Source of the DNA: a virus
Lineage: Duplodnaviria; Heunggongvirae; Uroviricota; Caudoviricetes
Virus record (IMG/VR): IMGVR_UViG_2541047774_000004
Direction: 5' to 3' (one strand)
DNA length: 11,147 nt
The number at the start of each line of letters is the position of its first letter. Position 1 is the first letter of the stretch. The translations under genes and the position numbers were made by a program. Positions 1-11,147 of the stretch are shown in pieces. The notes beneath the pieces are model-generated. The model saw only the letters and a program-made list of their open reading frames with translations. It was not told the origin of the DNA and searched no databases.

Positions 1-996
1 GCACAGGAGAAATCCCTGCTGGCGCATAAAGATGAGACGCTGGAGTACAAACGCCAGCTGGCTGCACTTGGCGACAAGGTTACGTATCAGGAGCGCCTGA
101 ACGCGCTGGCGCAGCAGGCGGATAAGTTCGCACAGCAACAACGGGCAAAACGGGCAGCCATTGAGGCGAAAAACCGGGGGCTTACTGACCGGCAGGCAGC
201 GCGGGAAGCCACAGAACAGCGCCTGAAGGAACAGTATGGCGATAATTCGCTGGCGCTGAATAACGTCATGTCAGAGCAGAAAAAGACCTGGGCGGCTGAA
301 GACCAGCTTCGCGGGAGCTGGATGGCAGGCCTCAGGTCCGGCTGGAGTGAGTGGGAAGAGAGCGCCACGGACAGTATGTCGCAGGTTAAAAGTGCAGCCA
401 CGCAGACCTTTGATGGTATTGCGCAGAATATGGCGGCGATGCTGACCGGCAGTGAGCAGAACTGGCGCAGCTTCACCCGTTCCGTGCTGTCCATGATGAC
501 AGAAATTCTGCTTAAGCAGGCAATGGTGGGGATTGTCGGGAGTATCGGTAGCGCCATTGGCGGGGCTGTTGGTGGCGGCGCATCCGCGTCAGGCGGTACA
601 GCCATTCAGGCCGCTGCGGCGAAATTCCATTTTGCAACCGGAGGATTTACGGGAACCGGCGGCAAATATGAGCCAGCGGGGATTGTTCACCGTGGTGAAT
701 TTGTCTTCACGAAGGAGGCAACCAGCCGGATTGGTGTCGGCAACCTGTACCGCCTGATGCGGGGCTATGCGGAAGGTGGTTATGTGGGCGGTGCCGGAAG
801 TCCGGCGCAGATGCGGCGGGCTGAAGGCATTAATTTTAATCAGAACAATCACGTGGTGATTCAGAACGACGGTACGAATGGTCTGCCAGGTCCACAGATG
901 ATGAAGGCAGTGTATGACATGGCCCGCAAGGGTGCCCGTGATGAAATTCAGACACAGATGCGTGATGGTGGCCTGTTCTCCGGAGGTGGACGATGA
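1..996 (+). CDS. H: Tail tape measure protein, C-terminal portion (5'-partial; ORF open from base 1 in frame 1)
   Basis: Frame 1 is open from position 1 to TGA at 994-996; the ORF-track Met at 268 is internal. Gly-rich C-terminus (GSIGSAIGGAVGGGASASGGT...GLFSGGGR) and position immediately upstream of M with ATGA overlap match lambda gpH. Identity is by recalled similarity and synteny. Confidence 0.88.
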   Translation, partial: AQEKSLLAHKDETLEYKRQLAALGDKVTYQERLNALAQQADKFAQQQRAKRAAIEAKNRGLTDRQAAREATEQRLKEQYGDNSLALNNVMSEQKKTWAAEDQLRGSWMAGLRSGWSEWEESATDSMSQVKSAATQTFDGIAQNMAAMLTGSEQNWRSFTRSVLSMMTEILLKQAMVGIVGSIGSAIGGAVGGGASASGGTAIQAAAAKFHFATGGFTGTGGKYEPAGIVHRGEFVFTKEATSRIGVGNLYRLMRGYAEGGYVGGAGSPAQMRRAEGINFNQNNHVVIQNDGTNGLPGPQMMKAVYDMARKGARDEIQTQMRDGGLFSGGGR

Positions 997-1322
997 AAAC
1001 CTTCCGCTGGAAAGTGAAACCCGGTATGGATGTGGCTTCGGCCCCTTCCGTCAGGAAAGTGCGCTTTGGTGATGGCTATTCCCAGCGAGCGCCTGCCGGG
1101 CTGAATGCCGACCTGAAAACGTACAGCGTGACGCTTTCTGTTCCCCGTTGGGAGGCCACGGCGCTGGAGTCGTTTCTGGCTGAGCACGGGGGCTGGAAAG
1201 CCTTTCTGTGGACGCCGCCTTATGAGTGGCGGCAGATAAAGGTGACCTGCGCAAAATGGTCGTCGCGGGTCAGTATGCTGCGTGTTGAGTTCAGCGCAGA
1301 GTTTGAACAGGTGGTGAACTGA
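993..1322 (+). CDS. M: Minor tail protein M (tail tip assembly), 109 aa
   Basis: 109-aa ORF MKTFRWKVKPGMDVASAP..., same length as lambda gpM; ATG at 993 overlaps H stop (ATGA); stop overlaps L start (TGATG), indicating translational coupling. Confidence 0.93.
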   Translation: MKTFRWKVKPGMDVASAPSVRKVRFGDGYSQRAPAGLNADLKTYSVTLSVPRWEATALESFLAEHGGWKAFLWTPPYEWRQIKVTCAKWSSRVSMLRVEFSAEFEQVVN

Positions 1323-2020
1323 TGCAGGATATCCGGCAGGAAACACTGAATGAATGCACCCGTGCGGAGCAGTCGGCCAGCGTGGTGCTCTGGGAAATCG
1401 ACCTGACAGAGGTCGGTGGAGAACGTTATTTTTTCTGTAATGAGCTGAACGAAAAAGGTGAGCCGGTCACCTGGCAGGGGCGACAGTATCAGCCGTATCC
1501 CATTCAGGGGAGCGGTTTTGAACTGAATGGCAAAGGCACCAGTACGCGCCCCACGCTGACGGTTTCTAACCTGTACGGTATGGTCACCGGGATGGCGGAA
1601 GATCTGCAGAGTCTGGTCGGCGGAACGGTGGTCAGGCGTAAGGTTTACGCCCGTTTTCTGGATGCGGTGAACTTCGTCAACGGAAACAGTTACGCCGATC
1701 CGGAGCAGGAGGTGATCAGCCGCTGGCGCATTGAGCAGTGCAGCGAACTGAGCGCGGTGAGTGCCTCCTTTGTACTGTCCACGCCGACGGAAACGGATGG
1801 CGCTGTTTTTCCGGGACGTATCATGCTGGCCAACACCTGCACCTGGACCTATCGCGGTGACGAGTGCGGTTATAGCGGTCCGGCTGTCGCGGATGAATAT
1901 GACCAGCCGACGTCCGATATCACGAAGGATAAATGCAGCAAATGCCTGAGTGGCTGTAAGTTCCGCAATAACGTCGGCAACTTTGGCGGCTTCCTTTCCA
2001 TTAACAAACTTTCGCAGTAA
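1322..2020 (+). CDS. L: Minor tail protein L (tail tip complex), 232 aa
   Basis: 232-aa ORF MQDIRQETLNECTRAEQSASVVLWEIDLTEVGGERYFFCNEL..., same length and N-terminus as lambda gpL; C-terminal cysteine cluster CTWTYRGDECGYSG...DKCSKCLSGC. Confidence 0.93.
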   Translation: MQDIRQETLNECTRAEQSASVVLWEIDLTEVGGERYFFCNELNEKGEPVTWQGRQYQPYPIQGSGFELNGKGTSTRPTLTVSNLYGMVTGMAEDLQSLVGGTVVRRKVYARFLDAVNFVNGNSYADPEQEVISRWRIEQCSELSAVSASFVLSTPTETDGAVFPGRIMLANTCTWTYRGDECGYSGPAVADEYDQPTSDITKDKCSKCLSGCKFRNNVGNFGGFLSINKLSQ

Positions 2021-2024
2021 TCCC

Positions 2025-2768
2025 ATGACAGAGACAGAATCAGCGATTCTGGCGCACGCCCGGCGATGTGCGCCAGCGGAGTCGTGCGGCTTCGTGGTGA
2101 GAACGCCGGAGGGGGAAAGATATTTTCCCTGCGTGAATATTTCCGGTGAGCCGGAGGATTATTTCCGGATGGCTCCGGAGGACTGGCTGCAGGCAGAAAT
2201 GCAGGGTGAGATTGTGGCGCTGGTCCACAGCCACCCCGGTGGTCTGCCCTGGCTGAGTGAGGCTGACCGGCGGCTGCAGGTGCAGAGTGATTTGCCGTGG
2301 TTGCTGGTCTGCCGGGGGGCGATTCATAAGTTCCGCTGTGTGCCGCATCTCACCGGGCGGCGCTTTGAGCACGGGGTGACGGACTGTTACACGCTGTTCC
2401 GGGATGCTTATCATCTGGCGGGGATTGAGATGCCGGATTTTCATCGCGGGGATGACTGGTGGCGTCACGGTCAGAATCTCTATCTGGATAATCTGGAGGC
2501 CACAGGGCTGTATCAGGTGCCGTTGTCATCAGCACAACCGGGCGATGTGCTGCTGTGCTGTTTTGGTTCATCGGTGCCGAATCATGCCGCCATTTACTGT
2601 GGTGACGGCGAGCTGCTGCACCATATTCCTGAACAACTGAGCAAACGAGAGAGGTATACCGACAAATGGCAGCGACGCACACACTCCCTCTGGCGTCACC
2701 GGGCATGGCGCGCATCTGCCTTTACGGGGATTTACAACGATTTGGCCGCCGCATCGACCTTCGTGTGA
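2025..2768 (+). CDS. K: Tail tip assembly protein K (JAMM/MPN-like plus NlpC/P60-like domains), 247 aa from ATG 2025; alternative start ATG 2169 gives 199 aa
   Basis: ORF in frame 3; first ATG after the L stop is at 2025 (MTETESAILAHARRC...). Contains HSHPGGLPWLSEAD (H-x-H-x7-S-x2-D JAMM-type motif) and later GVTDCYTLF ... NHAAIY (Cys/His as in NlpC/P60 peptidases). The 1950 start in the ORF track overlaps L by 71 nt and is unlikely. ATG 2169 has the better Shine-Dalgarno (GGAGG at 2153-2157). Confidence 0.82.
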   Translation: MTETESAILAHARRCAPAESCGFVVRTPEGERYFPCVNISGEPEDYFRMAPEDWLQAEMQGEIVALVHSHPGGLPWLSEADRRLQVQSDLPWLLVCRGAIHKFRCVPHLTGRRFEHGVTDCYTLFRDAYHLAGIEMPDFHRGDDWWRHGQNLYLDNLEATGLYQVPLSSAQPGDVLLCCFGSSVPNHAAIYCGDGELLHHIPEQLSKRERYTDKWQRRTHSLWRHRAWRASAFTGIYNDLAAASTFV

Positions 2769-3337
2769 AAACGGGGGCTGAAGCCATTCGGGCGCTGGCC
2801 ACACAGCTCCCGGCGTTTCGTCAGAAACTGAGCGACGGCTGGTATCAGGTACGGATTTCCGGGCGGGACGTCAGCACGTCCGGATTGACGGCGCAGTTAC
2901 ATGAGGTTCTGCCTGACGGCGCTGTGATTCATATTGTTCCCAGAGTCGCCGGGGCCAAGTCAGGGGGCGTATTCCAGATTGTTCTGGGGGCTGCCGCCAT
3001 TGCCGGATCATTCTTTACTGCCGGAGCCACCCTTGCAGCATGGGGGGCAGCCATTGGGGCCGGTGGTATGACCGGTATCCTGTTTTCTCTCGGTGCCAGT
3101 ATGGTACTTGGTGGTGTGGCGCAGATGCTGGCACCGAAAGCCAGAACTCCCCGTACACAGACAACGGATAACGGTAAGCAGAACACCTATTTCTCCTCAC
3201 TGGATAACATGGTTGCCCAGGGCAATGTTCTGCCTGTTCTGTACGGTGAAATGCGCGTGGGGTCGCGGGTGGCTTCTCAGGAGATCAGCACGGCAGACGA
3301 GGGGGACGGTGGTCAGGTTGTGGTGATTGGTCGTTGA
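2666..3337 (+). CDS. I: Tail tip assembly protein I, 223 aa
   Basis: 223-aa ORF MAATHTLPLASPGMARICLYGDLQRFGRRIDL..., same length as lambda gpI; starts inside the 3' end of K in another frame (103-nt overlap) as in lambda; Gly/Ala-rich hydrophobic C-terminal half; purine-rich GAGAGAGG upstream. Confidence 0.9.
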   Translation: MAATHTLPLASPGMARICLYGDLQRFGRRIDLRVKTGAEAIRALATQLPAFRQKLSDGWYQVRISGRDVSTSGLTAQLHEVLPDGAVIHIVPRVAGAKSGGVFQIVLGAAAIAGSFFTAGATLAAWGAAIGAGGMTGILFSLGASMVLGGVAQMLAPKARTPRTQTTDNGKQNTYFSSLDNMVAQGNVLPVLYGEMRVGSRVASQEISTADEGDGGQVVVIGR

Positions 3338-3355
3338 TGAAAAACGTTTTATGTG

Positions 3356-3382
3356 AAACCGCCTCAGGGCGGTTTTGTCGTT
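3356..3382 (+). terminator. Stem-loop with T-rich tail in the I-J intergenic gap (possible weak terminator/attenuator or RNA processing site)
   Basis: AAACCGCC (3356-3363), loop TCAG, GGCGGTTT (3368-3375): perfect 8-bp inverted repeat followed by TGTCGTTTC. Confidence 0.35.
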
Positions 3383-3397
3383 TCTGGAGCGTGAGGA

Positions 3398-6300
3398 ATG
3401 GGTAAAGGCAGCAGTAAGGGGCATACCCCGCGCGAAGCGAAGGACAACCTGAAATCATCCCAGATGCTGAGCGTGATAGACGCCATCAGTGAAGGGCCGA
3501 TTGAAGGTCCGGTGGACGGATTAAAAAGTGTGCTGCTGAACAGTACGCCAGTGCTGGACAGTGAGGGGAATACCAATATCTCCGGTGTCACGGTGGTTTT
3601 CCGGGCAGGTGAGCAGGAGCAGACACCGCCGGAGGGATTTGAATCCTCCGGCTCCGAGACGGTGCTGGGTACGGAAGTGAAGTACGACACGCCGATTACC
3701 CGGACCATCACGTCTGCAAACATCGACCGTCTGCGCTTTACCTTCGGTGTGCAGGCACTGGTGGAAACCACCTCAAAGGGGGACCGGAATCCGTCGGAAG
3801 TCCGCCTGCTGGTTCAGATACAGCGTAACGGTGGCTGGGTGACGGAAAAAGACATCACCATTAAAGGCAAAACCACCTCGCAGTATCTGGCATCGGTGGT
3901 GGTGGGTAACCTGCCGCCGCGCCCGTTCAATATCCGGATGCGCAGGATGACGCCGGACAGCACCACAGACCAGCTGCAGAACAAAACGCTCTGGTCGTCA
4001 TACACCGAAATCATCGATGTGAAACAGTGCTACCCGAACACGGCACTGGTCGGCGTACAGGTGGATTCGGAGCAGTTCGGCAGCCAGCAGGTGAGCCGTA
4101 ATTATCATCTGCGCGGGCGTATTCTGCAGGTGCCGTCGAACTATAACCCGCAGACGCGGCAATACAGCGGTATCTGGGACGGAACGTTTAAGCCAGCATA
4201 CAGCAATAACATGGCCTGGTGTCTGTGGGATATGCTGACCCATCCACGCTACGGCATGGGGAAACGTCTTGGTGCGGCGGATGTGGACAAATGGGCGCTG
4301 TATGTCATCGGCCAGTACTGCGACCAGTCAGTGCCGGACGGCTTTGGCAGCACGGAGCCGCGCATCACCTGTAATGCCTGGCTGACCACACAGCGAAAGG
4401 CGTGGGATGTGCTCAGTGATTTCTGCTCGGCGATGCGCTGTATGCCGGTATGGAACGGGCAGACGCTGACGTTCGTGCAGGACCGACCGTCGGATAAGGT
4501 GTGGACCTATAACCGCAGTAATGTGGTGATGCCGGATGATGGCGCGCCGTTCCGCTACAGCTTCAGCGCCCTGAAAGACCGCCATAATGCCGTTGAGGTG
4601 AACTGGATTGACCCGAACAACGGCTGGGAGACGGCGACAGAGCTTGTGGAGGATACGCAGGCCATTGCCCGTTACGGTCGTAACGTCACGAAGATGGATG
4701 CCTTTGGCTGTACCAGCCGGGGGCAGGCACACCGCGCCGGGCTGTGGCTGATTAAAACGGAACTGCTGGAGACGCAGACCGTGGATTTCAGCGTGGGCGC
4801 AGAAGGGCTTCGCCATGTGCCGGGCGATGTTATTGAAATCTGCGATGATGACTATGCGGGGATCAGCATCGGCGGGCGCGTGCTGGCTGTGAACAGCCAG
4901 ACCCGGACGCTGACGCTCGACCGTGAAATCACGCTGCCATCCTCCGGTACCACGCTGATAAGCCTGGTTGACGGAAGTGGCAATCCGGTCAGCGTGGAGG
5001 TCCAGTCCGTCACCGACGGCGTGAAGGTAAAAGTGAGCCGTGTTCCTGACGGCGTTGCCGGATACAGCGTATGGGGGCTGAAGCTGCCGACGCTGCGCCA
5101 GCGCCTGTTCCGCTGCGTGAGTATCCGTGAGAACGATGACGGCACGTATGCCATCACCGCCGTGCAGCATGTACCAGAAAAAGAGGCCATCGTGGATAAC
5201 GGGGCGCACTTTGACGGCGACCAGAGCGGCACGGTGAATGGTGTCACGCCGCCAGCAGTGCAGCACCTGACTGCCGAAGTCACCGCAGACAGCGGGGAAT
5301 ATCAGGTGCTGGCGCGCTGGGACACGCCGAAGGTGGTGAAGGGGGTGAGCTTTATGCTTCGCCTGACCGTGGCAGCGGATGACGGCAGTGAGCGGCTGGT
5401 CAGCACGGCCCGGACGGCGGAAACCACATACCGCTTCACGCAACTGGCGCTGGGGAACTACAGGCTGACAGTCCGGGCAGTAAATGCCCGGGGGCAGCAG
5501 GGAGACCCGGCGTCGGTATCGTTCCGGATTGCCGCCCCGGCAGCGCCGTCGCGGATTGAGCTGACACCGGGCTATTTTCAGATAACCGCCACGCCGCATC
5601 TTGCGGTTTATGACCCGACGGTACAGTTTGAGTTCTGGTTCTCGGAAAAACGGATTGCTGATATCAGGCAGGTTGAAACCACAGCCCGCTATCTTGGCAC
5701 GGCGCTGTACTGGATAGCTGCCAGTATCAATATCAAACCGGGCCATGATTATTACTTTTATATCCGCAGTGTGAACACCGTTGGCAAATCGGCATTCGTG
5801 GAGGCCGTCGGTCGGGCGAGCGATGATGCGGAAGGTTACCTGGATTTTTTCAAAGGCCAGATAACCGAATCCCATCTCGGTAAAGAGCTGCTGGAAAAAG
5901 TTGATTTGACGGAGGATAACGCCAGCAGACTGGATGAGTTTTCGAAAGAGTGGAAGGACGCTAACGATAAATGGAATGCCATGTGGGGCGTCAAAATTGA
6001 GCAGACCAAAGACGGCAAACATTATGTCGCGGGTATTGGCCTCAGCATGGAGGACACGGAGGAAGGCAAGCTGAGCCAGTTTCTGGTTGCCGCTAACCGT
6101 ATCGCGTTTATTGACCCGGCAAACGGGAATGAAACGCCGATGTTTGTGGCGCAGGGCAACCAGATATTCATGAACGACGTGTTCCTGAAACGCCTGACGG
6201 CCCCCACCATTACCAGCGGTGGCAGTCCTCCGGTATTTTCCCTGACATCAGACGGAAAGCTGACCGCTAAAAATGCGGATATCAGTGGTAGTGTGAATGC

Positions 6301-6811
6301 GAACTCAGGAACGCTCAACAATGTCACGATTAACCAGAACTGTACGATTAAGGGCATGCTGGAGGCGACTCAGGTCAGAGGTGACTTCGTTAAAGCTGTA
6401 TCCAAATCATTTCCGAAACAGGCTGGTACGTGGGGTAACACGGAAACACCAAACGGGACGGTTACAGTCACCATCAGCGATGATCATAACTTTGACCGTC
6501 AAATCATTATTCCGCCCATTATCTTTAACGGAATAGCGTATAGCGATCCGGGAAGTGGTAATAACCCGGGAGGTACAAGATACACGGGTTATGGTTTTGA
6601 AGTTCGCAAAAACGGTGTATTAATCGCATCCAGAGAAACTAAAGGGGCCATTCCCGGTAGCTACAGTGCGGTTATTGATATGCCGAGTGGCAGGGGAAGC
6701 GTCACTCTGGAGTTTAAGGTTTTCCATAAAGGCAATCAGTGGGCAGGTAATATCACCGACTGTACGGTGATTGTGACCAAAAAAGCCGCTTCCGGCATCA
6801 GTATTCGTTGA
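3398..6811 (+). CDS. J: Central tail fibre / host specificity protein J, 1137 aa
   Basis: 1137-aa [57 protein letters not shown]..., recalled as near-identical to lambda gpJ (1132 aa) over most of its length; GAGG immediately upstream of the ATG; follows I after a 60-nt gap. Confidence 0.95.
6320..6808 (+). other. Divergent, lower-GC C-terminal (receptor-binding) segment of J
   Basis: Base composition drops sharply (one 60-nt line at 6481-6540 counts 22 G+C, versus 39 G+C for 5401-5460). The protein departs from the recalled lambda gpJ C-terminus after about ...[15 protein letters not shown], while keeping the ...VIVTKKA.SGIS.. ending pattern. Confidence 0.5.
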
Positions 6812-6832
6812 AATTGTTATAACCCATATAAG

Positions 6833-6856
6833 GGCACCAGAAATGGTGCCTTTTTT
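6833..6856 (+). terminator. Rho-independent terminator-like hairpin between J and lom
   Basis: GGCACCA (6833-6839), loop GAAA, TGGTGCC (6844-6850) followed by TTTTTT (6851-6856); 22 nt after the J stop. Confidence 0.6.
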
Positions 6857-6880
6857 ATTGCAGAAAAGCGAGAGGTAATT

Positions 6881-7480
6881 ATGCGTAAATTATGTGCTGT
6901 TATTCTGTCTGCAGTAGTCTGGCTGGTCGCCGCTGGTACGCCAGCGAGTGCAGCAGAGCATCAGTCCACACTAAGCGGCGGGTATCTTCAGTCCCATACT
7001 GATATGCCCGGCAACGATGACCTGAAGGGCATTAACGTGAAATACCGTTATGAGTTTACGGACACGCTGGGGATGGTGACGTCATTCAGCTATGCAGAAG
7101 ACAAGAATCGCCAGCTGACTCATTACAGCGATACCCGCTGGCATGAAGATTCCGTGCGTAACCGCTGGTTCAGCGTGATGGCGGGGCCGTCTGTGCGCGT
7201 GAATGAATGGTTCAGCGCGTATGCGATGGCGGGTGTGGCTTACAGCCGTATTTCGACTTTCTCCGGGGATTATCTCCGCGTAACTGACAACAAGGGGAAA
7301 ACGCACGACGTGCTGACCGGAAGTGATGACGGTCGCCGCAGCAACACGTCTCTGGCGTGGGGGGCTGGCGTGCAGTTTAACCCGACCGAATCCGTGGCCA
7401 TTGATATTGCTTATGAAGGCTCCGGCAGTGGCGACTGGCGCACTGACGGTTTCATCGTGGGTGTCGGTTATAAATTCTGA
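6881..7480 (+). CDS. lom: Lom outer membrane protein (Ail/Lom/PagC-family beta-barrel), 199 aa; lysogenic-conversion moron
   Basis: 199-aa ORF with N-terminal signal peptide MRKLCAVILSAVVWLVAAGTPASA followed by AEHQ (A-x-A cleavage site), alternating aromatic/hydrophobic beta-strand pattern and C-terminal ...GVGYKF; GAGAGG 6 nt upstream of ATG; same position as lambda lom between J and stf. Confidence 0.9.
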   Translation: MRKLCAVILSAVVWLVAAGTPASAAEHQSTLSGGYLQSHTDMPGNDDLKGINVKYRYEFTDTLGMVTSFSYAEDKNRQLTHYSDTRWHEDSVRNRWFSVMAGPSVRVNEWFSAYAMAGVAYSRISTFSGDYLRVTDNKGKTHDVLTGSDDGRRSNTSLAWGAGVQFNPTESVAIDIAYEGSGSGDWRTDGFIVGVGYKF

Positions 7481-7506
7481 TTAGCCAGGTAACACAGTGT
7501 TATGAC

Positions 7507-7533
7507 AGCCCGCCGGTTCAGGCGGGCTTTTTT
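7507..7533 (+). terminator. Rho-independent terminator downstream of lom
   Basis: AGCCCGCC (7507-7514), loop GGTTCA, GGCGGGCT (7521-7528) followed by a T-run through 7533; 27 nt after the lom stop. Confidence 0.65.
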
Positions 7534-7544
7534 GTGGGGTGAAT

Positions 7545-10500
7545 ATGGCAGTAAAGATTTCAGGTGTACTGAAAGACGGTGCAGGTAAACCGGTACAGAA
7601 CTGCACAATCCAGCTGAAAGCAAAACGTAACAGCACCACGGTGGTGGTGAACACGGTGGCATCTGAAAATCCGGATGAAGCCGGGCGTTACAGCATGGAC
7701 GTTGAGTACGGTCAGTACCGCGTTATTCTGTTGGTGGAAGGATTCCCGCCGTCACATGCCGGGACCATCACCGTGTATGAAGATTCTCAACCCGGTACGC
7801 TGAATGATTTTCTCGGTGCCATGACGGAGGATGATGCCCGTCCGGAGGCACTGCGCCGTTTTGAACTGATGGTGGAAGAGGTGGCGCGTAACGCGTCCGC
7901 AGTGGCACAGAACACGGCAGCCGCAAAGAAGTCAGCCAGCGATGCCGGCACATCTGCCCGTGAGGCGGCAACCCATGCAACCGATGCTGCAGGCTCAGCA
8001 CGTGCCGCCAGCACGTCAGCCGGACAGGCTGCATCATCTGCTCAGTCAGCATCTTCCAGCGCAGGAACGGCATCAACAAAGGCCACTGAAGCATTAAAAA
8101 GTGCTGCCGCTGCAGAGTCCTCAAAAAGCGCGGCAGCCACCAGTGCCGGTGCGGCGAAAACGTCAGAAACGAATGCCGCAGCATCACAACTATCAGCAGC
8201 CACTTCTGCATCCACCGCGACCACGAAGGCGTCAGAAGCTGCCACCTCAGCCCGGGATGCGGCGGCCTCAAAAGAGGCAGCGAAATCATCAGAAACGAAC
8301 GCATCATCAAGTGCCAGTAGTGCAGCTTCCTCGGCAACGGCGGCAGGAAATTCCGCGAAGGCCGCAAAAACGTCTGAGACGAATGCGGATAACAGCGCAC
8401 AGGCGGCAGCAGACTCACAAACTGCATCGGCAAACTCCGCGACAGCAGCCAAAAAATCAGAAACCAACGCGAAAAATAGCGAGGCAGCAGCAAAGAGCAG
8501 CGAAACAAACGCTAAAGCCAGCGAAACTAATGCTAAATCCAGTGAAACAAACGCGGCGAAATCTGCGGCGGACGCACTTAATTATTGCAACCAGGCGCAA
8601 GTAATTGTTGGCGATAATATCGGTCTTGGCTCAGCCCCGCGTGATTGTCCTGATATTTCCGGCAACCCATCAGGGTATATCGGATTTATGCGCATTATGA
8701 GTAATGCAAAAGGCTTTCCATCGATTGCATCCGGTGAAAGCAGTCTTACGGGGTTTATTAGTCAGGTAGATGGAACACCAGCGTATACAGGTGTATTTCA
8801 GGGATGGGCTACGCGCTCGCTTTATACTTATCGCTGGAATCCGACAACAGGCCCGCAATGGACACGCCACGCTCGCAAAAATGAAGTGGACCGTCTTGAC
8901 CAATGGAATAGCGAAACATGGTTATATAACCATGATAAATCCATGCGCCTGGGTTTAACCGGATCAACATGGGGGTGTTACAGCGACACACAAAAAAAAT
9001 GGATACCGCTTGATGTTTCTCATGGTGGCACTGGCGCAAATAGCCTTGATGACGCCAAAACTAATTTGCAAATCCCTGAGGGTGGATTAACAAAAGCGAT
9101 GACCCTTAATGCCCCTGGTGGTGCAGTGGATGGCAAATACTACCCTGTCATAATAGACACATCTGCAATGAATGGGAGCGGTGCCATGTTATGTCCTGTT
9201 GAAATAAAAACAGCAGGAGGTCCGGCATCAAATCCGCTTAATAGTAACTCATTTTTTGGGTTCATTCGATGTGGTGGCTGGAGTGACGTTCGCGATGTGG
9301 CTTACGGGTCATTTGTTTGCTATGAAAAAAATGAACTCGGGATACTTTGCATTAAAGCGTCGCAAAGAGATTATGCGCAGCATGTAGCTTTCTACATCCA
9401 TAAAAGCGCTTTTCCTGTCGTTGTGCAAACTGGCTACAAGGCGAAAGTTAAGGTTCCAACAGAAGACTACGTAATTGGTGACAACGGGGTTAGATATAAG
9501 TTTGGTGTATCAACGTCAACGGAGGATAACGACAAGAACTTTGTTAAAAATGTTCTTGACTTCACTGGCGGTGAACATGGCTTCTACAGCAACCTTCCGT
9601 TCAGACAAGGGGTGTCAGAAAGGATTGCATTAACAAATGGCCTGAGTTTTGACAAAAATTTTACCGTCACTATTCCTATATTTGTAAACAATGGTCAGAT
9701 TAAAGCAACACAATCTTTCACCGCGTACGGTACAGACGCTTCAAACAGAACATTTGTTTCTCAAAGATTACAATCCGAAGGAGGTCCGGTTGTCGATCAA
9801 ACTGAACTAAGGGCCGCTAACGCTTCTGGTGAAATTATTGTCAGGGACATAAATAATTCAGGGAACAGTAAGTTCTTTAATTTTAACCTTGATGGTACCT
9901 TCAGTTCTTACCAGGGATTGGTTGTTCACACAGGGCAAAACTGGAGCACTCAACATACAGATAATGTAAATAAGTTTAAGCCAATAGCAGGGAGCGCAGG
10001 CGGTCCTGACGGAACAATGGTTGTTGGCGGATTCCATGCTCAATTTAGCGGTAATTACGTCACACAATTCGCCGGTCGCAACTCCAAATTTTGGGCAAGA
10101 AGCTTTGAGGCTGGGGTTGATAAGGGATGGAAACGACTATTAACAGTAGACGATCTCAATTCATCTACCGATCTTGCTGTCAGGTCATTAACCACATCTA
10201 ACCCGGTAAAATCTGGCGGAGGGCGAATTGATGTCCTTGGAAGCACGTCAGACTATAGCAAAATGGATTGCTTTGTACGTGGGTTTGATAGCACCGGTAA
10301 TTCTCTCGCGTGGGCGTTGGGTTCATCAGTCGGCGTAAGTAAGATGCTGTCGCTAAAAAATTTCTTTAGCGGAGCTGAGATACTGTTAAATGGTAATGAC
10401 GGCGCGGTTCAACTCAAAACAGGTGCTGTTAACGGGGCTAAAGCGCAGGCGCTCACTATCAACAAGGATGAGGTTAATTCAACTGTTGATTTAACTCTTA

Positions 10501-11147
10501 CAAAACAAACAGGGACTGGCAATCGTTTTGTTTTACAGAACTTAGGTAATACAGAACTATCATTTGCCGCAAAAGTATGGGGATCAAGTGATCGACAAAA
10601 CGTTTTTGAGGTTGGAACGTCTGCTGCGTATCTGTTTTATGCGCAAAAAACGTCAGCAGGCCAGTTGTTTGATGTAAATGGCGCTATTAATTGCACAACG
10701 CTGAATCAGTCATCAGACCGCGACCTTAAAGACGATATTCTCGTTATCAGCGACGCGACGAAAGCAATCCGTAAAATGAACGGATACACCTACACGCTCA
10801 GGGAAAACGGGATGCCTTATGCTGGCGTTATTGCACAGGAAGTAATGGAGGCGATACCAGAAGCTGTGGGATCGTTTACTCATTACGGTGAAGAGTTGCA
10901 GGGACCAACGGTTGACGGCAATGAATTACGTGAAGAAACACGTTATCTGAATGTTGACTACGCCGCCGTGACGGGGTTACTTGTTCAGGTCGCCCGTGAA
11001 ACAGATGGTCGCGTTACCGCGCTGGAAGAGGAAAACATAACGCTACGTAAAAATCTGGCAACAGCAGGCACCCGGATCAGCACTCTGGAAAATCAGGTAA
11101 GCGAACTGGTTGCACTTGTCGGGCAGTTAACAGGAAGCGAACATTGA
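7545..11147 (+). CDS. stf: Side tail fibre protein (Stf-like): lambda-Stf-like N-terminus, Ala/Ser-rich repetitive shaft, divergent distal region, C-terminal intramolecular chaperone domain; about 1200 aa
   Basis: Continuous ORF to TGA at 11145-11147. N-terminus MAVKISGVLKDGAGKPVQNCTIQLKAKRNSTTVVVNTV...GQYRVILLVEGFPPSHAGTITVYEDSQPGTLNDFL matches the recalled lambda Stf N-terminus, followed by SETNA-containing Ala/Ser-rich repeats. The ORF track starts at GTG 7539 (MNM...); ATG 7545 (MAVKISG) is preferred by analogy to lambda Stf. Confidence 0.9.
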   Translation: MAVKISGVLKDGAGKPVQNCTIQLKAKRNSTTVVVNTVASENPDEAGRYSMDVEYGQYRVILLVEGFPPSHAGTITVYEDSQPGTLNDFLGAMTEDDARPEALRRFELMVEEVARNASAVAQNTAAAKKSASDAGTSAREAATHATDAAGSARAASTSAGQAASSAQSASSSAGTASTKATEALKSAAAAESSKSAAATSAGAAKTSETNAAASQLSAATSASTATTKASEAATSARDAAASKEAAKSSETNASSSASSAASSATAAGNSAKAAKTSETNADNSAQAAADSQTASANSATAAKKSETNAKNSEAAAKSSETNAKASETNAKSSETNAAKSAADALNYCNQAQVIVGDNIGLGSAPRDCPDISGNPSGYIGFMRIMSNAKGFPSIASGESSLTGFISQVDGTPAYTGVFQGWATRSLYTYRWNPTTGPQWTRHARKNEVDRLDQWNSETWLYNHDKSMRLGLTGSTWGCYSDTQKKWIPLDVSHGGTGANSLDDAKTNLQIPEGGLTKAMTLNAPGGAVDGKYYPVIIDTSAMNGSGAMLCPVEIKTAGGPASNPLNSNSFFGFIRCGGWSDVRDVAYGSFVCYEKNELGILCIKASQRDYAQHVAFYIHKSAFPVVVQTGYKAKVKVPTEDYVIGDNGVRYKFGVSTSTEDNDKNFVKNVLDFTGGEHGFYSNLPFRQGVSERIALTNGLSFDKNFTVTIPIFVNNGQIKATQSFTAYGTDASNRTFVSQRLQSEGGPVVDQTELRAANASGEIIVRDINNSGNSKFFNFNLDGTFSSYQGLVVHTGQNWSTQHTDNVNKFKPIAGSAGGPDGTMVVGGFHAQFSGNYVTQFAGRNSKFWARSFEAGVDKGWKRLLTVDDLNSSTDLAVRSLTTSNPVKSGGGRIDVLGSTSDYSKMDCFVRGFDSTGNSLAWALGSSVGVSKMLSLKNFFSGAEILLNGNDGAVQLKTGAVNGAKAQALTINKDEVNSTVDLTLTKQTGTGNRFVLQNLGNTELSFAAKVWGSSDRQNVFEVGTSAAYLFYAQKTSAGQLFDVNGAINCTTLNQSSDRDLKDDILVISDATKAIRKMNGYTYTLRENGMPYAGVIAQEVMEAIPEAVGSFTHYGEELQGPTVDGNELREETRYLNVDYAAVTGLLVQVARETDGRVTALEEENITLRKNLATAGTRISTLENQVSELVALVGQLTGSEH
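8150..8565 (+). repeat. In-frame degenerate peptide repeats (K-[ST]-SETNA...) in the Stf shaft, ending in three tandem 21-nt units
   Basis: Protein motifs AKTSETNAAASQ, AKSSETNASSSA, AKTSETNADNSA, KKSETNAKNSE, then tandem SETNAKA-SETNAKS-SETNAAK encoded at about 8497-8565 (agcgaaacaaacgctaaagcc / agcgaaactaatgctaaatcc / agtgaaacaaacgcggcgaaa). Confidence 0.6.
10713..11144 (+). other. C-terminal intramolecular chaperone / autoproteolytic domain of Stf (peptidase S74-like, as in endosialidase and T5 L-shaped fibre)
   Basis: Motif NQSSDRDLKDDILVISDATKAIRKMNGYTYTL with Ser (codon 10713-10715) and Lys (codon 10728-10730) spaced S-x4-K, followed by a heptad-like C-terminal helix ...TALEEENITLRKNLATAGTRISTLENQVSELVALVGQL at the protein end. 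Confidence 0.6.

Follow-up and report, generated by a model that had tools for sequence, protein, structure and literature searches.

Putative intrinsic terminators flank lom, an accessory outer-membrane protein gene between J and stf in a lambda-like prophage of Escherichia coli

Genes of the lom type are routinely listed as virulence or adhesion factors of prophages. The morons described for the HK97/HK022 group, for example HK97 gene 15 and lambda bor, are extra genes for non-structural envelope proteins that lie amid conserved late genes with a terminator behind them, and lom has been counted among the standard examples (PMC3594210). The defining feature of a moron is a promoter of its own, and a deviant base composition is usual. 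In phage lambda, lom (NP_040601) stands between J and stf, and its product is a host outer-membrane protein according to the passage of PMC1151598 that cites Reeve & Shaw 1979. The lom genes of lambda and phi24B have been stated to be expressed in the lysogen and to be uncoupled from phage regulation (PMC1151598, PMC4651098, PMC7067206). In an array study of lambda, lom was undetected, and little was said to be known of the lom promoter (PMC2147009). The same slot right after J is used by other cargo aimed at the envelope in N15, HK022 and phi80-type phages. In N15, J is followed by genes 22 and 23, by cor, by an annotated rho-independent terminator and then by the fibre gene, and in HK022 it is cor that follows J. 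Unlike Lom, Cor is a small exclusion protein unrelated to the Ail/Lom barrel, and the N15 annotation shows no terminator in the interval that separates J from its first cargo gene. In HK97, J is directly followed by stf and there is no lom; however, the N-terminal type of its stf differs, and the 207-nt gap has no canonical terminator. Given this different stf type, HK97 was only partly useful to us as a clean empty site.

In this study, we analysed a stretch of 11,147 nucleotides (hereafter the window) from the tail end of a lambda-like prophage; it is 100% identical to DNA of E. coli strain N61. Strain N61 is a bovine mastitis isolate, and its prophage is located at the argU/DLP12-ompT locus. 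Genes of the lom type accompany tail genes in the prophages of most E. coli genomes, and the window region was matched in 4859 of 5426 complete E. coli genomes. According to the annotation of the N61 prophage, quuD lies upstream of essD, rrrD and rzpD; then come the genes from terminase to stf, J and lom among them, and the whole series is on a single strand. This layout is like that of a Q-antiterminated lambdoid late operon, in which the Q-family gene, here quuD, precedes the genes for lysis, head and tail in the same orientation, with putative internal intrinsic terminators to override. The J protein, annotated gpJ in strain N61, has Pfam matches to Phage-tail_3, Ig_J, FNIII-A_GpJ, Phage_Tail_Tip and Ig_GpJ_C, and the gene ends with a TGA stop codon at 6809-6811. 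The stf product carries the Pfam domain phage_tail_N at its N-terminus and an S74 chaperone domain at its C-terminus. Between these two genes lies lom, an accessory gene for an outer-membrane protein of the Ail/Lom type. The features of the locus are listed in Table 1.

Table 1. Features of the J-lom-stf region, with positions counted from the first nucleotide of the window
Feature	Position	Strand	Basis or remark
J (tail tip / host-specificity protein, 1137 aa)	3398..6811	+	ORF; upstream neighbour of the lom cassette
Exchangeable C-terminal (receptor-binding) module of J	6343..6770	+	Homology breaks, GC
Block travelling with lom (last ~13 codons of J, T1 and lom leader)	6771..6880	+	
T1, putative intrinsic terminator after J	6830..6856	+	Stem 6830-6839/6844-6853, T-run 6851-6856
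lom ribosome-binding site GAGAGG	6871..6876	+	4 nt before ATG; read from sequence
lom (Ail/Lom outer-membrane beta-barrel protein, 199 aa)	6881..7480	+	Pfam, PHROG
13-nt palindrome TAACAC-A-GTGTTA, small hairpin in the lom 3' UTR	7490..7502	+	Folds as a 6-bp stem
T2, putative intrinsic terminator after lom	7507..7533	+	Stem 7507-7514/7521-7528, T6 7528-7533
stf (side tail fibre)	7545..11147	+	Pfam; annotated in N61; stop codon is the end of the window

A preliminary description of this DNA had taken Lom for an outer-membrane protein of the Ail family with a clear signal peptide, and both assignments held. The protein matched the Pfam profile PF06316 (Ail_Lom) over its full length, residues 1-199 falling on profile positions 1-199 (E = 1.1e-122, 407.5 bits, cut-off 23); it also matched OMP_b-brl of Pfam and belongs to PHROG 108, 'Lom outer membrane protein' (E = 3e-105). 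Its amino-acid identity to lambda Lom is 45%. The signal peptide is predicted at residues 1-24 (6881-6952), where the N-terminus reads MRKLCAVILSAVVWLVAAGTPASA/AE, the slash marking the end of the peptide; judged by eye, it has the standard features, namely MRK, a hydrophobic core and then ASA/AE. The reading frame opens with the ATG at 6881 and closes with the stop codon at 7478-7480. The ribosome-binding site GAGAGG, which is found in lambda too, showed no variation in alignment A1, and the leader at 6857-6880 is nearly invariant among the 20 distinct variants. In the small palindrome downstream of lom, 96.5% of cells were paired across variants with wobble changes only, and the element was absent or altered in two loci (L014 and L041).

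The base composition of lom (GC 0.55, GC3 0.61) was close to that of J (GC 0.56, GC3 0.67) and of the window (GC 0.54), and it was stf that was the outlier (GC 0.48). A composition of lom deviating from its flanking genes was not found, and nothing in it pointed to a foreign origin. The 3' end of J had been described as AT-rich. The GC content of its last 500 nt is indeed lower than that of J overall, only mildly so (0.47 vs 0.56), and the value for the J-lom spacer is 0.36.

The locus is like that of lambda in gene order, in protein family and in having a hairpin with a T-run 25 nt before the lom ATG. The T2 of lambda, which precedes stf, is nearly identical to that of the window, and the 3' end of lom, T2 and the N-terminus of stf share 87% DNA identity. 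In contrast, DNA homology to lambda is lacking in the C-terminal module of J, in T1 and across the 5' three-quarters of lom. The J-lom spacer of lambda holds an unrelated hairpin, CGTCCG-GGAA-CGGGCG, followed by TTTTATTAT. With -9.7 kcal/mol, this T1 is the weaker of the two, and past it stands TATTAT, which the window allele is without. Lysogenic expression of lom is documented for lambda, but not for the window allele. Closer relatives are the phages Ayreon (MF807953) and mEp460 (NC_019716), with 94-95% DNA identity over 6500-7800. In both records, J, lom, stf and two terminators are annotated at homologous positions, the terminators of mEp460 as rho-independent. The differences from Ayreon, mEp460 and prophage Perceval are only allelic in lom (87-88% protein identity to Perceval and Ayreon), and the distal part of stf differs. 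The arrangement is thus neither unusual nor new: both terminators were already annotated in Ayreon and mEp460. The architecture of lom by itself adds nothing new to the textbook arrangement.

The region is a mosaic. Homology to lambda and to several lom loci is lost at ~6343-6367 and regained at ~6771-6794, and the left homology boundary at 6771-6794 was found in five loci (L069, L084, L086, L090 and L113). Further joints lie inside lom at ~7353-7394 (against lambda), at ~7470/7522 (L069) and at ~7594. These joints place the last ~13 codons of J in a single block with T1 and lom, and T2 and the N-terminus of stf are usually the next block. Locus L017 had been considered as a natural mosaic joint just before T1, and it was rejected: its prophage is degraded, and the DNA upstream encodes an IS3-family transposase.

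Both hairpins were found at the positions first proposed for them, the coordinates agreeing within one base of counting convention. We looked for a G+C-rich stem of at least 5 bp with a loop of 3-8 nt, directly followed by at least 5 T and located past a stop codon, and T1 and T2 both have this structure of a Rho-independent terminator. The stem of T1 has 10 bp, 5 of them G:C, with the core GGGCACC/GGTGCC, a GAAA loop of 4 nt and T6; there are 24 nt between its T-run and the lom ATG. The stem of T2 has 8 bp, 7 of them G:C, with a loop of 6 nt and T6, and 11 nt remain to the stf ATG. RNA folding, which had been proposed as a check, gave -15.6 kcal/mol for T1 (z = -4.5, matched by 0 of 200 shuffles) and -18.2 kcal/mol for T2 (z = -3.1, matched by 1 of 200 shuffles).

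In the terminator scan, T2 ranked first and T1 second among the terminator-like sites of the window, and the same ranks were obtained across the 20-kb late operon of the prophage, from terminase to lom. Taken together, the terminator-like sites of the window were no more numerous than expected by chance (16 vs 11.7 +/- 3.6 in shuffles). The two hairpins both lie in the 133 nt of intergenic DNA beside lom, which is ~1.2% of the window, and the probability that two given sites both fall there by chance is roughly 1e-4. Stability by itself does not single out T1 and T2, since GC-rich hairpins in coding DNA reach -22 kcal/mol; what is distinctive is the combination of hairpin, T-run and intergenic position. 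A search of 6300-8000 against Rfam at a permissive threshold did not find a known RNA family, and two sub-threshold chance matches were returned, one to a human lncRNA model and the other to Trp_leader over T2.

To place the hairpins among relatives, 117 loci encoding Lom relatives were fetched, of which 104 had a near-full-length lom and were analysed. An upstream hairpin with a T-run no more than 90 nt before lom was present in 104 of the 104 loci, and a downstream hairpin with a T-run after lom in all 100 loci that had enough downstream sequence. In 102 of the 104, 24-25 nt separated the upstream T-run from the ATG. In the alignment of 20 distinct variants, both-sided changes were seen at 3 stem pairs of T1 (12 cells): G:C to A:U via a G.U intermediate, C:G to U:A, and A:U to U:A. 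For covariation, T1 scored 0.182 vs 0.086 in shuffles, 0 of 500 shuffles reached 0.182, and pairing collapsed in controls in which the partner was slid. T2 was conserved without covariation, with 96.6% of cells paired and only one-sided wobble changes. The L069-type loci have a different lom 3' UTR and yet carry a hairpin of -20.5 kcal/mol with T7, 13 nt before stf. Because of the conservation, the covariation of T1 and the occurrence of non-homologous hairpins at the same positions, T1 and T2 are, as read from sequence, intrinsic terminators kept by selection, and they would be expected to terminate transcription.

It had been argued that any promoter of lom must overlap T1 or sit in the 3' end of J, and this spatial argument is correct. 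A promoter there was predicted by neither of our scans. The consensus scan of 6650-6880, which is blind to activator-dependent promoters and to those of alternative sigma factors, did not find a sigma-70 promoter, and the best local score of the weight-matrix scan was 5.95, with a poor -10 box and rank 31 of ~55,580 positions. The three non-homologous types of upstream DNA share no conserved -10-like element. In lambda, a good -10-like TATTAT stands directly past the T-run of T1; the window allele has TATTGC there, without the final T. The conserved TATAAC before T1 is without the critical final T and without a -35 box. Several single candidates were also rejected. The extended -10 TGTTATAAC (6815-6823) is restricted to the window and the Ayreon type and has no final T, and the sigma-32-like GTTGAAA ... 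CCCATAT has a spacer ~5 nt too short. The -35-like TTGATA at 6675 was read as coding, because lambda has TTGACA similarly far from the J stop codon. Inspection by eye upstream of lom revealed no sigma-E motif and no PhoP-box spacing. Known small RNAs do not account for the region either: the Pas sRNAs map near Q, RusA and the lysis genes, away from lom; 24B_1 of Phi24B maps to another region, of 428 nt, that follows lom in a podovirus genome; and the lambda RNAs PreS, LPR2 and 6S RNA are placed elsewhere in the genome in a preprint that leaves lom and stf unmentioned.

The prophage Perceval of E. coli LF82 (OV696612) is identical to the window in 500 of 500 nt upstream of the lom ATG and in the 64-nt lom-stf spacer including T2, and its Lom protein is 87% identical. 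We therefore used Perceval as a proxy for the window allele, with the same regulatory DNA in a different host strain. RNA-seq data of LF82 (PMC9928086) were analysed strand by strand in 10 samples from five conditions, namely stationary-phase LB, B1 and B6 (taken as DMEM), and MB1 and MB6 (macrophages, MB6 being 6 h after infection); the LB libraries were shallow. The read density of lom was 0-13 reads/kb, with raw counts of 8, 8, 6, 6, 7, 3, 0, 1, 0 and 4. Across the 10 samples, the densities of J and portal were 0.6-20 and 0-8 reads/kb, respectively, and those of cI and bor were 88-3381 and 14-4956 reads/kb, respectively, bor being strongly condition-dependent. In LB, DMEM and macrophages, the lom reads were indistinguishable from those of the silent J, portal and capsid genes. 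In LB only, lom (5-12 reads/kb) was a few-fold above J (0.6-3 reads/kb), a difference based on 3-7 reads. The list of prophage-expressed LF82 genes given by the authors does not include lom (PMC9928086). These results indicate that the regulatory DNA of the window drives no detectable lysogenic transcription in the sampled LF82 conditions, and autonomous expression from the repressed prophage appears unsupported for the window allele. The lysogen expression considered for lom in the preliminary description was not seen with this proxy; in the few conditions covered, the picture comes near to expression by late read-through only. The lambda and phi24B Lom proteins reported as lysogen-expressed are 45% and ~31% identical to that of the window, respectively, both genes have different upstream DNA, and phi24B is a podovirus context.

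Measured against the described morons, lom has the inserted position between J and the fibre gene and the terminator directly downstream, but neither a recognisable promoter (scan of 6650-6880) nor a base composition unlike that of the flanking genes was detected. The view of lom as a terminator-bracketed moron can be kept as far as it concerns an accessory gene in a variable slot with a putative terminator on each side; the part that concerned autonomous expression in the lysogen is unsupported. We regard lom as working like a terminator-insulated passenger gene in a Q-controlled operon, and the window allele may or may not be a true autonomous moron.

In view of the missing promoter and the LF82 data, we believe that lom is probably made mainly by Q-antiterminated late read-through, or under a condition outside those sampled. 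The gene would then be a non-structural passenger in the variable J-stf slot of a late operon like that of lambda. As long as the prophage is repressed, T1 would halt unmodified RNA polymerase leaving J before it enters lom, and T2 would halt polymerase leaving lom 11 nt short of the stf start. During lytic growth, following the lambda paradigm, polymerase modified by the Q-type antiterminator (QuuD) would ignore T1 and T2, so that J, lom and stf would be co-transcribed, presumably late; transcription of stf from the late promoter would require read-through of both T1 and T2. A different expectation follows if lom is a moron in the classical sense. The gene would then have a promoter of its own, either overlapping T1 or within the final ~40 nt of J, that is weak or requires an activator or a particular condition. 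Such a promoter might answer to signals from the envelope, from host contact or from temperature, its transcripts would start in or after the hairpin and end at T2, and the lysogen would gain adhesion or serum-resistance traits. The reports on lambda and phi24B, and the good -10 box of lambda directly behind the T-run, argue for this, but that box is not conserved in the window allele, the conserved TATAAC upstream of T1 lacks its key final T and a -35 box, and a sigma-70 consensus was not found in the scanned upstream region. The 110-nt block at 6771-6880 that always accompanies lom, the almost invariant leader past T1 and the clean 3' end that T2 would supply are consistent with a classical moron as well; nevertheless, lom with identical upstream DNA stayed at background in the five LF82 conditions. 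Within the same data, the read density of lom in LB was slightly above that of J, and the condition-dependent bor of Perceval suggests that conditional expression of such genes is real. On the whole, we consider a classical moron rather unlikely for the window allele.

The hairpins themselves may also be read in other ways. They might act mainly as stabilisers of RNA 3' ends or as processing barriers in the Q-antiterminated late polycistronic mRNA, where they would keep 3'-exonucleases from degrading the J and lom segments and would determine the relative protein yields. Under Q antitermination the hairpins could not terminate and would still remain in the RNA, and a strong intergenic hairpin with a poor T-run after the major capsid gene (L118, 8560-8577) suggests that stabiliser-type hairpins exist in the operon. 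However, a perfect T6 follows directly past both stems, which a stabiliser would not need, the T-run is conserved in all loci, and it is kept even by the independent non-homologous hairpins of lambda and the L069-type loci; we think it very unlikely that stabilisation is the main role. That T1 and T2 are functionless chance hairpins has a practically negligible probability. The number of terminator-like matches, which does not exceed that of shuffles, and the equally stable hairpins in coding DNA would fit such an origin, but T1 and T2 hold the top two ranks and both lie within the small lom-flanking part of the window, hairpins are present in every locus examined on either side of lom, T1 shows compensatory substitutions, and elsewhere non-homologous hairpins stand in their place. 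This reading is effectively refuted by the data on conservation and covariation.

A promoter was not detected for this common allele, and the same regulatory region is silent in the LF82 lysogen, so that caution is needed in the annotation of lom: without expression data, the lambda precedent does not justify listing every lom as a virulence moron expressed in lysogens. A stronger version of the late read-through explanation can be put forward as a speculation that we think unlikely to be right in full, namely that lom in the window allele is a Q-gated late gene instead of a lysogenic-conversion gene, that selection maintains T1 and T2 to keep Lom and the side fibre from being made in the lysogen, and that Lom acts on the outer membrane of the dying cell in lytic growth. 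If this were true, Lom could, for example, limit the re-adsorption of progeny or alter the behaviour of the envelope at lysis. An envelope-acting parallel in the same slot is Cor of N15 and HK022, which is annotated as a superinfection-exclusion protein.

In the published strand-specific RNA-seq of E. coli LF82 (PMC9928086), stf of the prophage Perceval and the next two genes gave 45-128 reads/kb in the macrophage samples, while lom, directly 5' of stf, gave only 0-7 reads/kb in the same samples. Because stf was raised while lom stayed low, the transcription of stf in macrophages does not arrive through lom. The Perceval stf transcripts must either start at or after T2, the intrinsic terminator of the lom-stf spacer, or derive from elsewhere. 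A search for an stf promoter gave no candidate common to the window and Perceval. The top sigma-70 weight-matrix match on the entire + strand of the window (score 9.53) lies within stf itself and is absent from Perceval, whose sequence there has diverged; this match may be due to chance.

Coordinates of features in the window and in related prophages
Feature	Position	Strand	Sequence	Location
Palindrome, 13 nt	window 7490-7502		TAACAC-A-GTGTTA	lom 3' UTR, just 5' of T2
Sigma-70-like match	window 7702-7729	+	TTGAGT, 16-nt spacer, TATTCT	stf N-terminal domain, ~160 nt past stf start
Peptidase_S74 intramolecular-chaperone domain	window 10713-10868			C-terminal end of stf
lom / stf pair of Perceval	LF82_180/181			equivalent to window 6881-7480 vs 7545 onward
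Hairpin, N61 prophage	L118 8560-8577		ATGGCCC-TTAG-GGGCCAT	directly 3' of major capsid gene
iss (bor homologue), N61 prophage	L118 354-647	opposite		3' of lysis genes
Porin gene, N61 prophage	L122 1777-2874			between quuD and lysis genes

Judging from the alignments, the C-terminal receptor-binding part of J (6343-6770) is a module exchanged on its own, and the last ~13 codons of J, which are conserved, form a recombination joint. The homology shared with lambda and numerous lom loci ends at ~6343-6367 and picks up again at ~6771-6794. The Lom proteins of the window and lambda are only 45% identical, yet the DNA identity between the two is 87% over the last ~130 nt of lom (7353-7480), T2 and ~840 nt of stf, and therefore a mosaic joint lies within the lom coding sequence. 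The palindrome in the lom 3' UTR is kept in lambda and most loci and is deleted or altered in two of them (L014 and L041); it may act as a small hairpin in the RNA or as a site at which a protein binds. In a viral contig (L017), J is missing and an IS3-family transposase pair (1219-2432) abuts ~10 nt upstream of T1, the intrinsic terminator of the J-lom spacer. This prophage is degraded, yet T1, lom, T2 and stf are all retained.

In the prophage of E. coli N61, the hairpin behind the major capsid gene was the sole further strong intergenic hairpin in the late operon. Its T-run is poor (TTTCTCTCTG), and it possibly stabilises the mRNA rather than acting as a terminator. The 207-nt J-stf spacer of HK97 holds no canonical terminator; a 17-nt inverted repeat is found there, GGAAGGTGCGAATAAGT ... 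ACTTATTCGCACCTTCC, with its arms ~70 nt apart (L119 5050-5160). Past the stf stop in the N61 prophage, a scan of ~1.8 kb of the + strand found no terminator-like sites. In N61, the tail-fibre assembly gene 3' of stf is just a fragment (L118 24697-24822) and is followed by the pinR recombinase gene.

Lambda-type lom was also found on low-coverage contigs, several of ~48.4-48.5 kb, among the genome_contigs matches (L094-L104). The source assemblies are of unrelated organisms, among them Pseudomonas, Shewanella, Neobacillus, Kitasatospora, Bradyrhizobium and Desulfosporosinus, and the Lom proteins are all 45% identical to that of the window, the same figure as for lambda Lom. These loci look like contamination of the assemblies with lambda control DNA.

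Besides lom, the N61 prophage carries iss and a porin gene. The bor gene of Perceval was strongly condition-dependent, with 14-27 reads/kb in LB versus 2300-5000 reads/kb in DMEM and macrophages.
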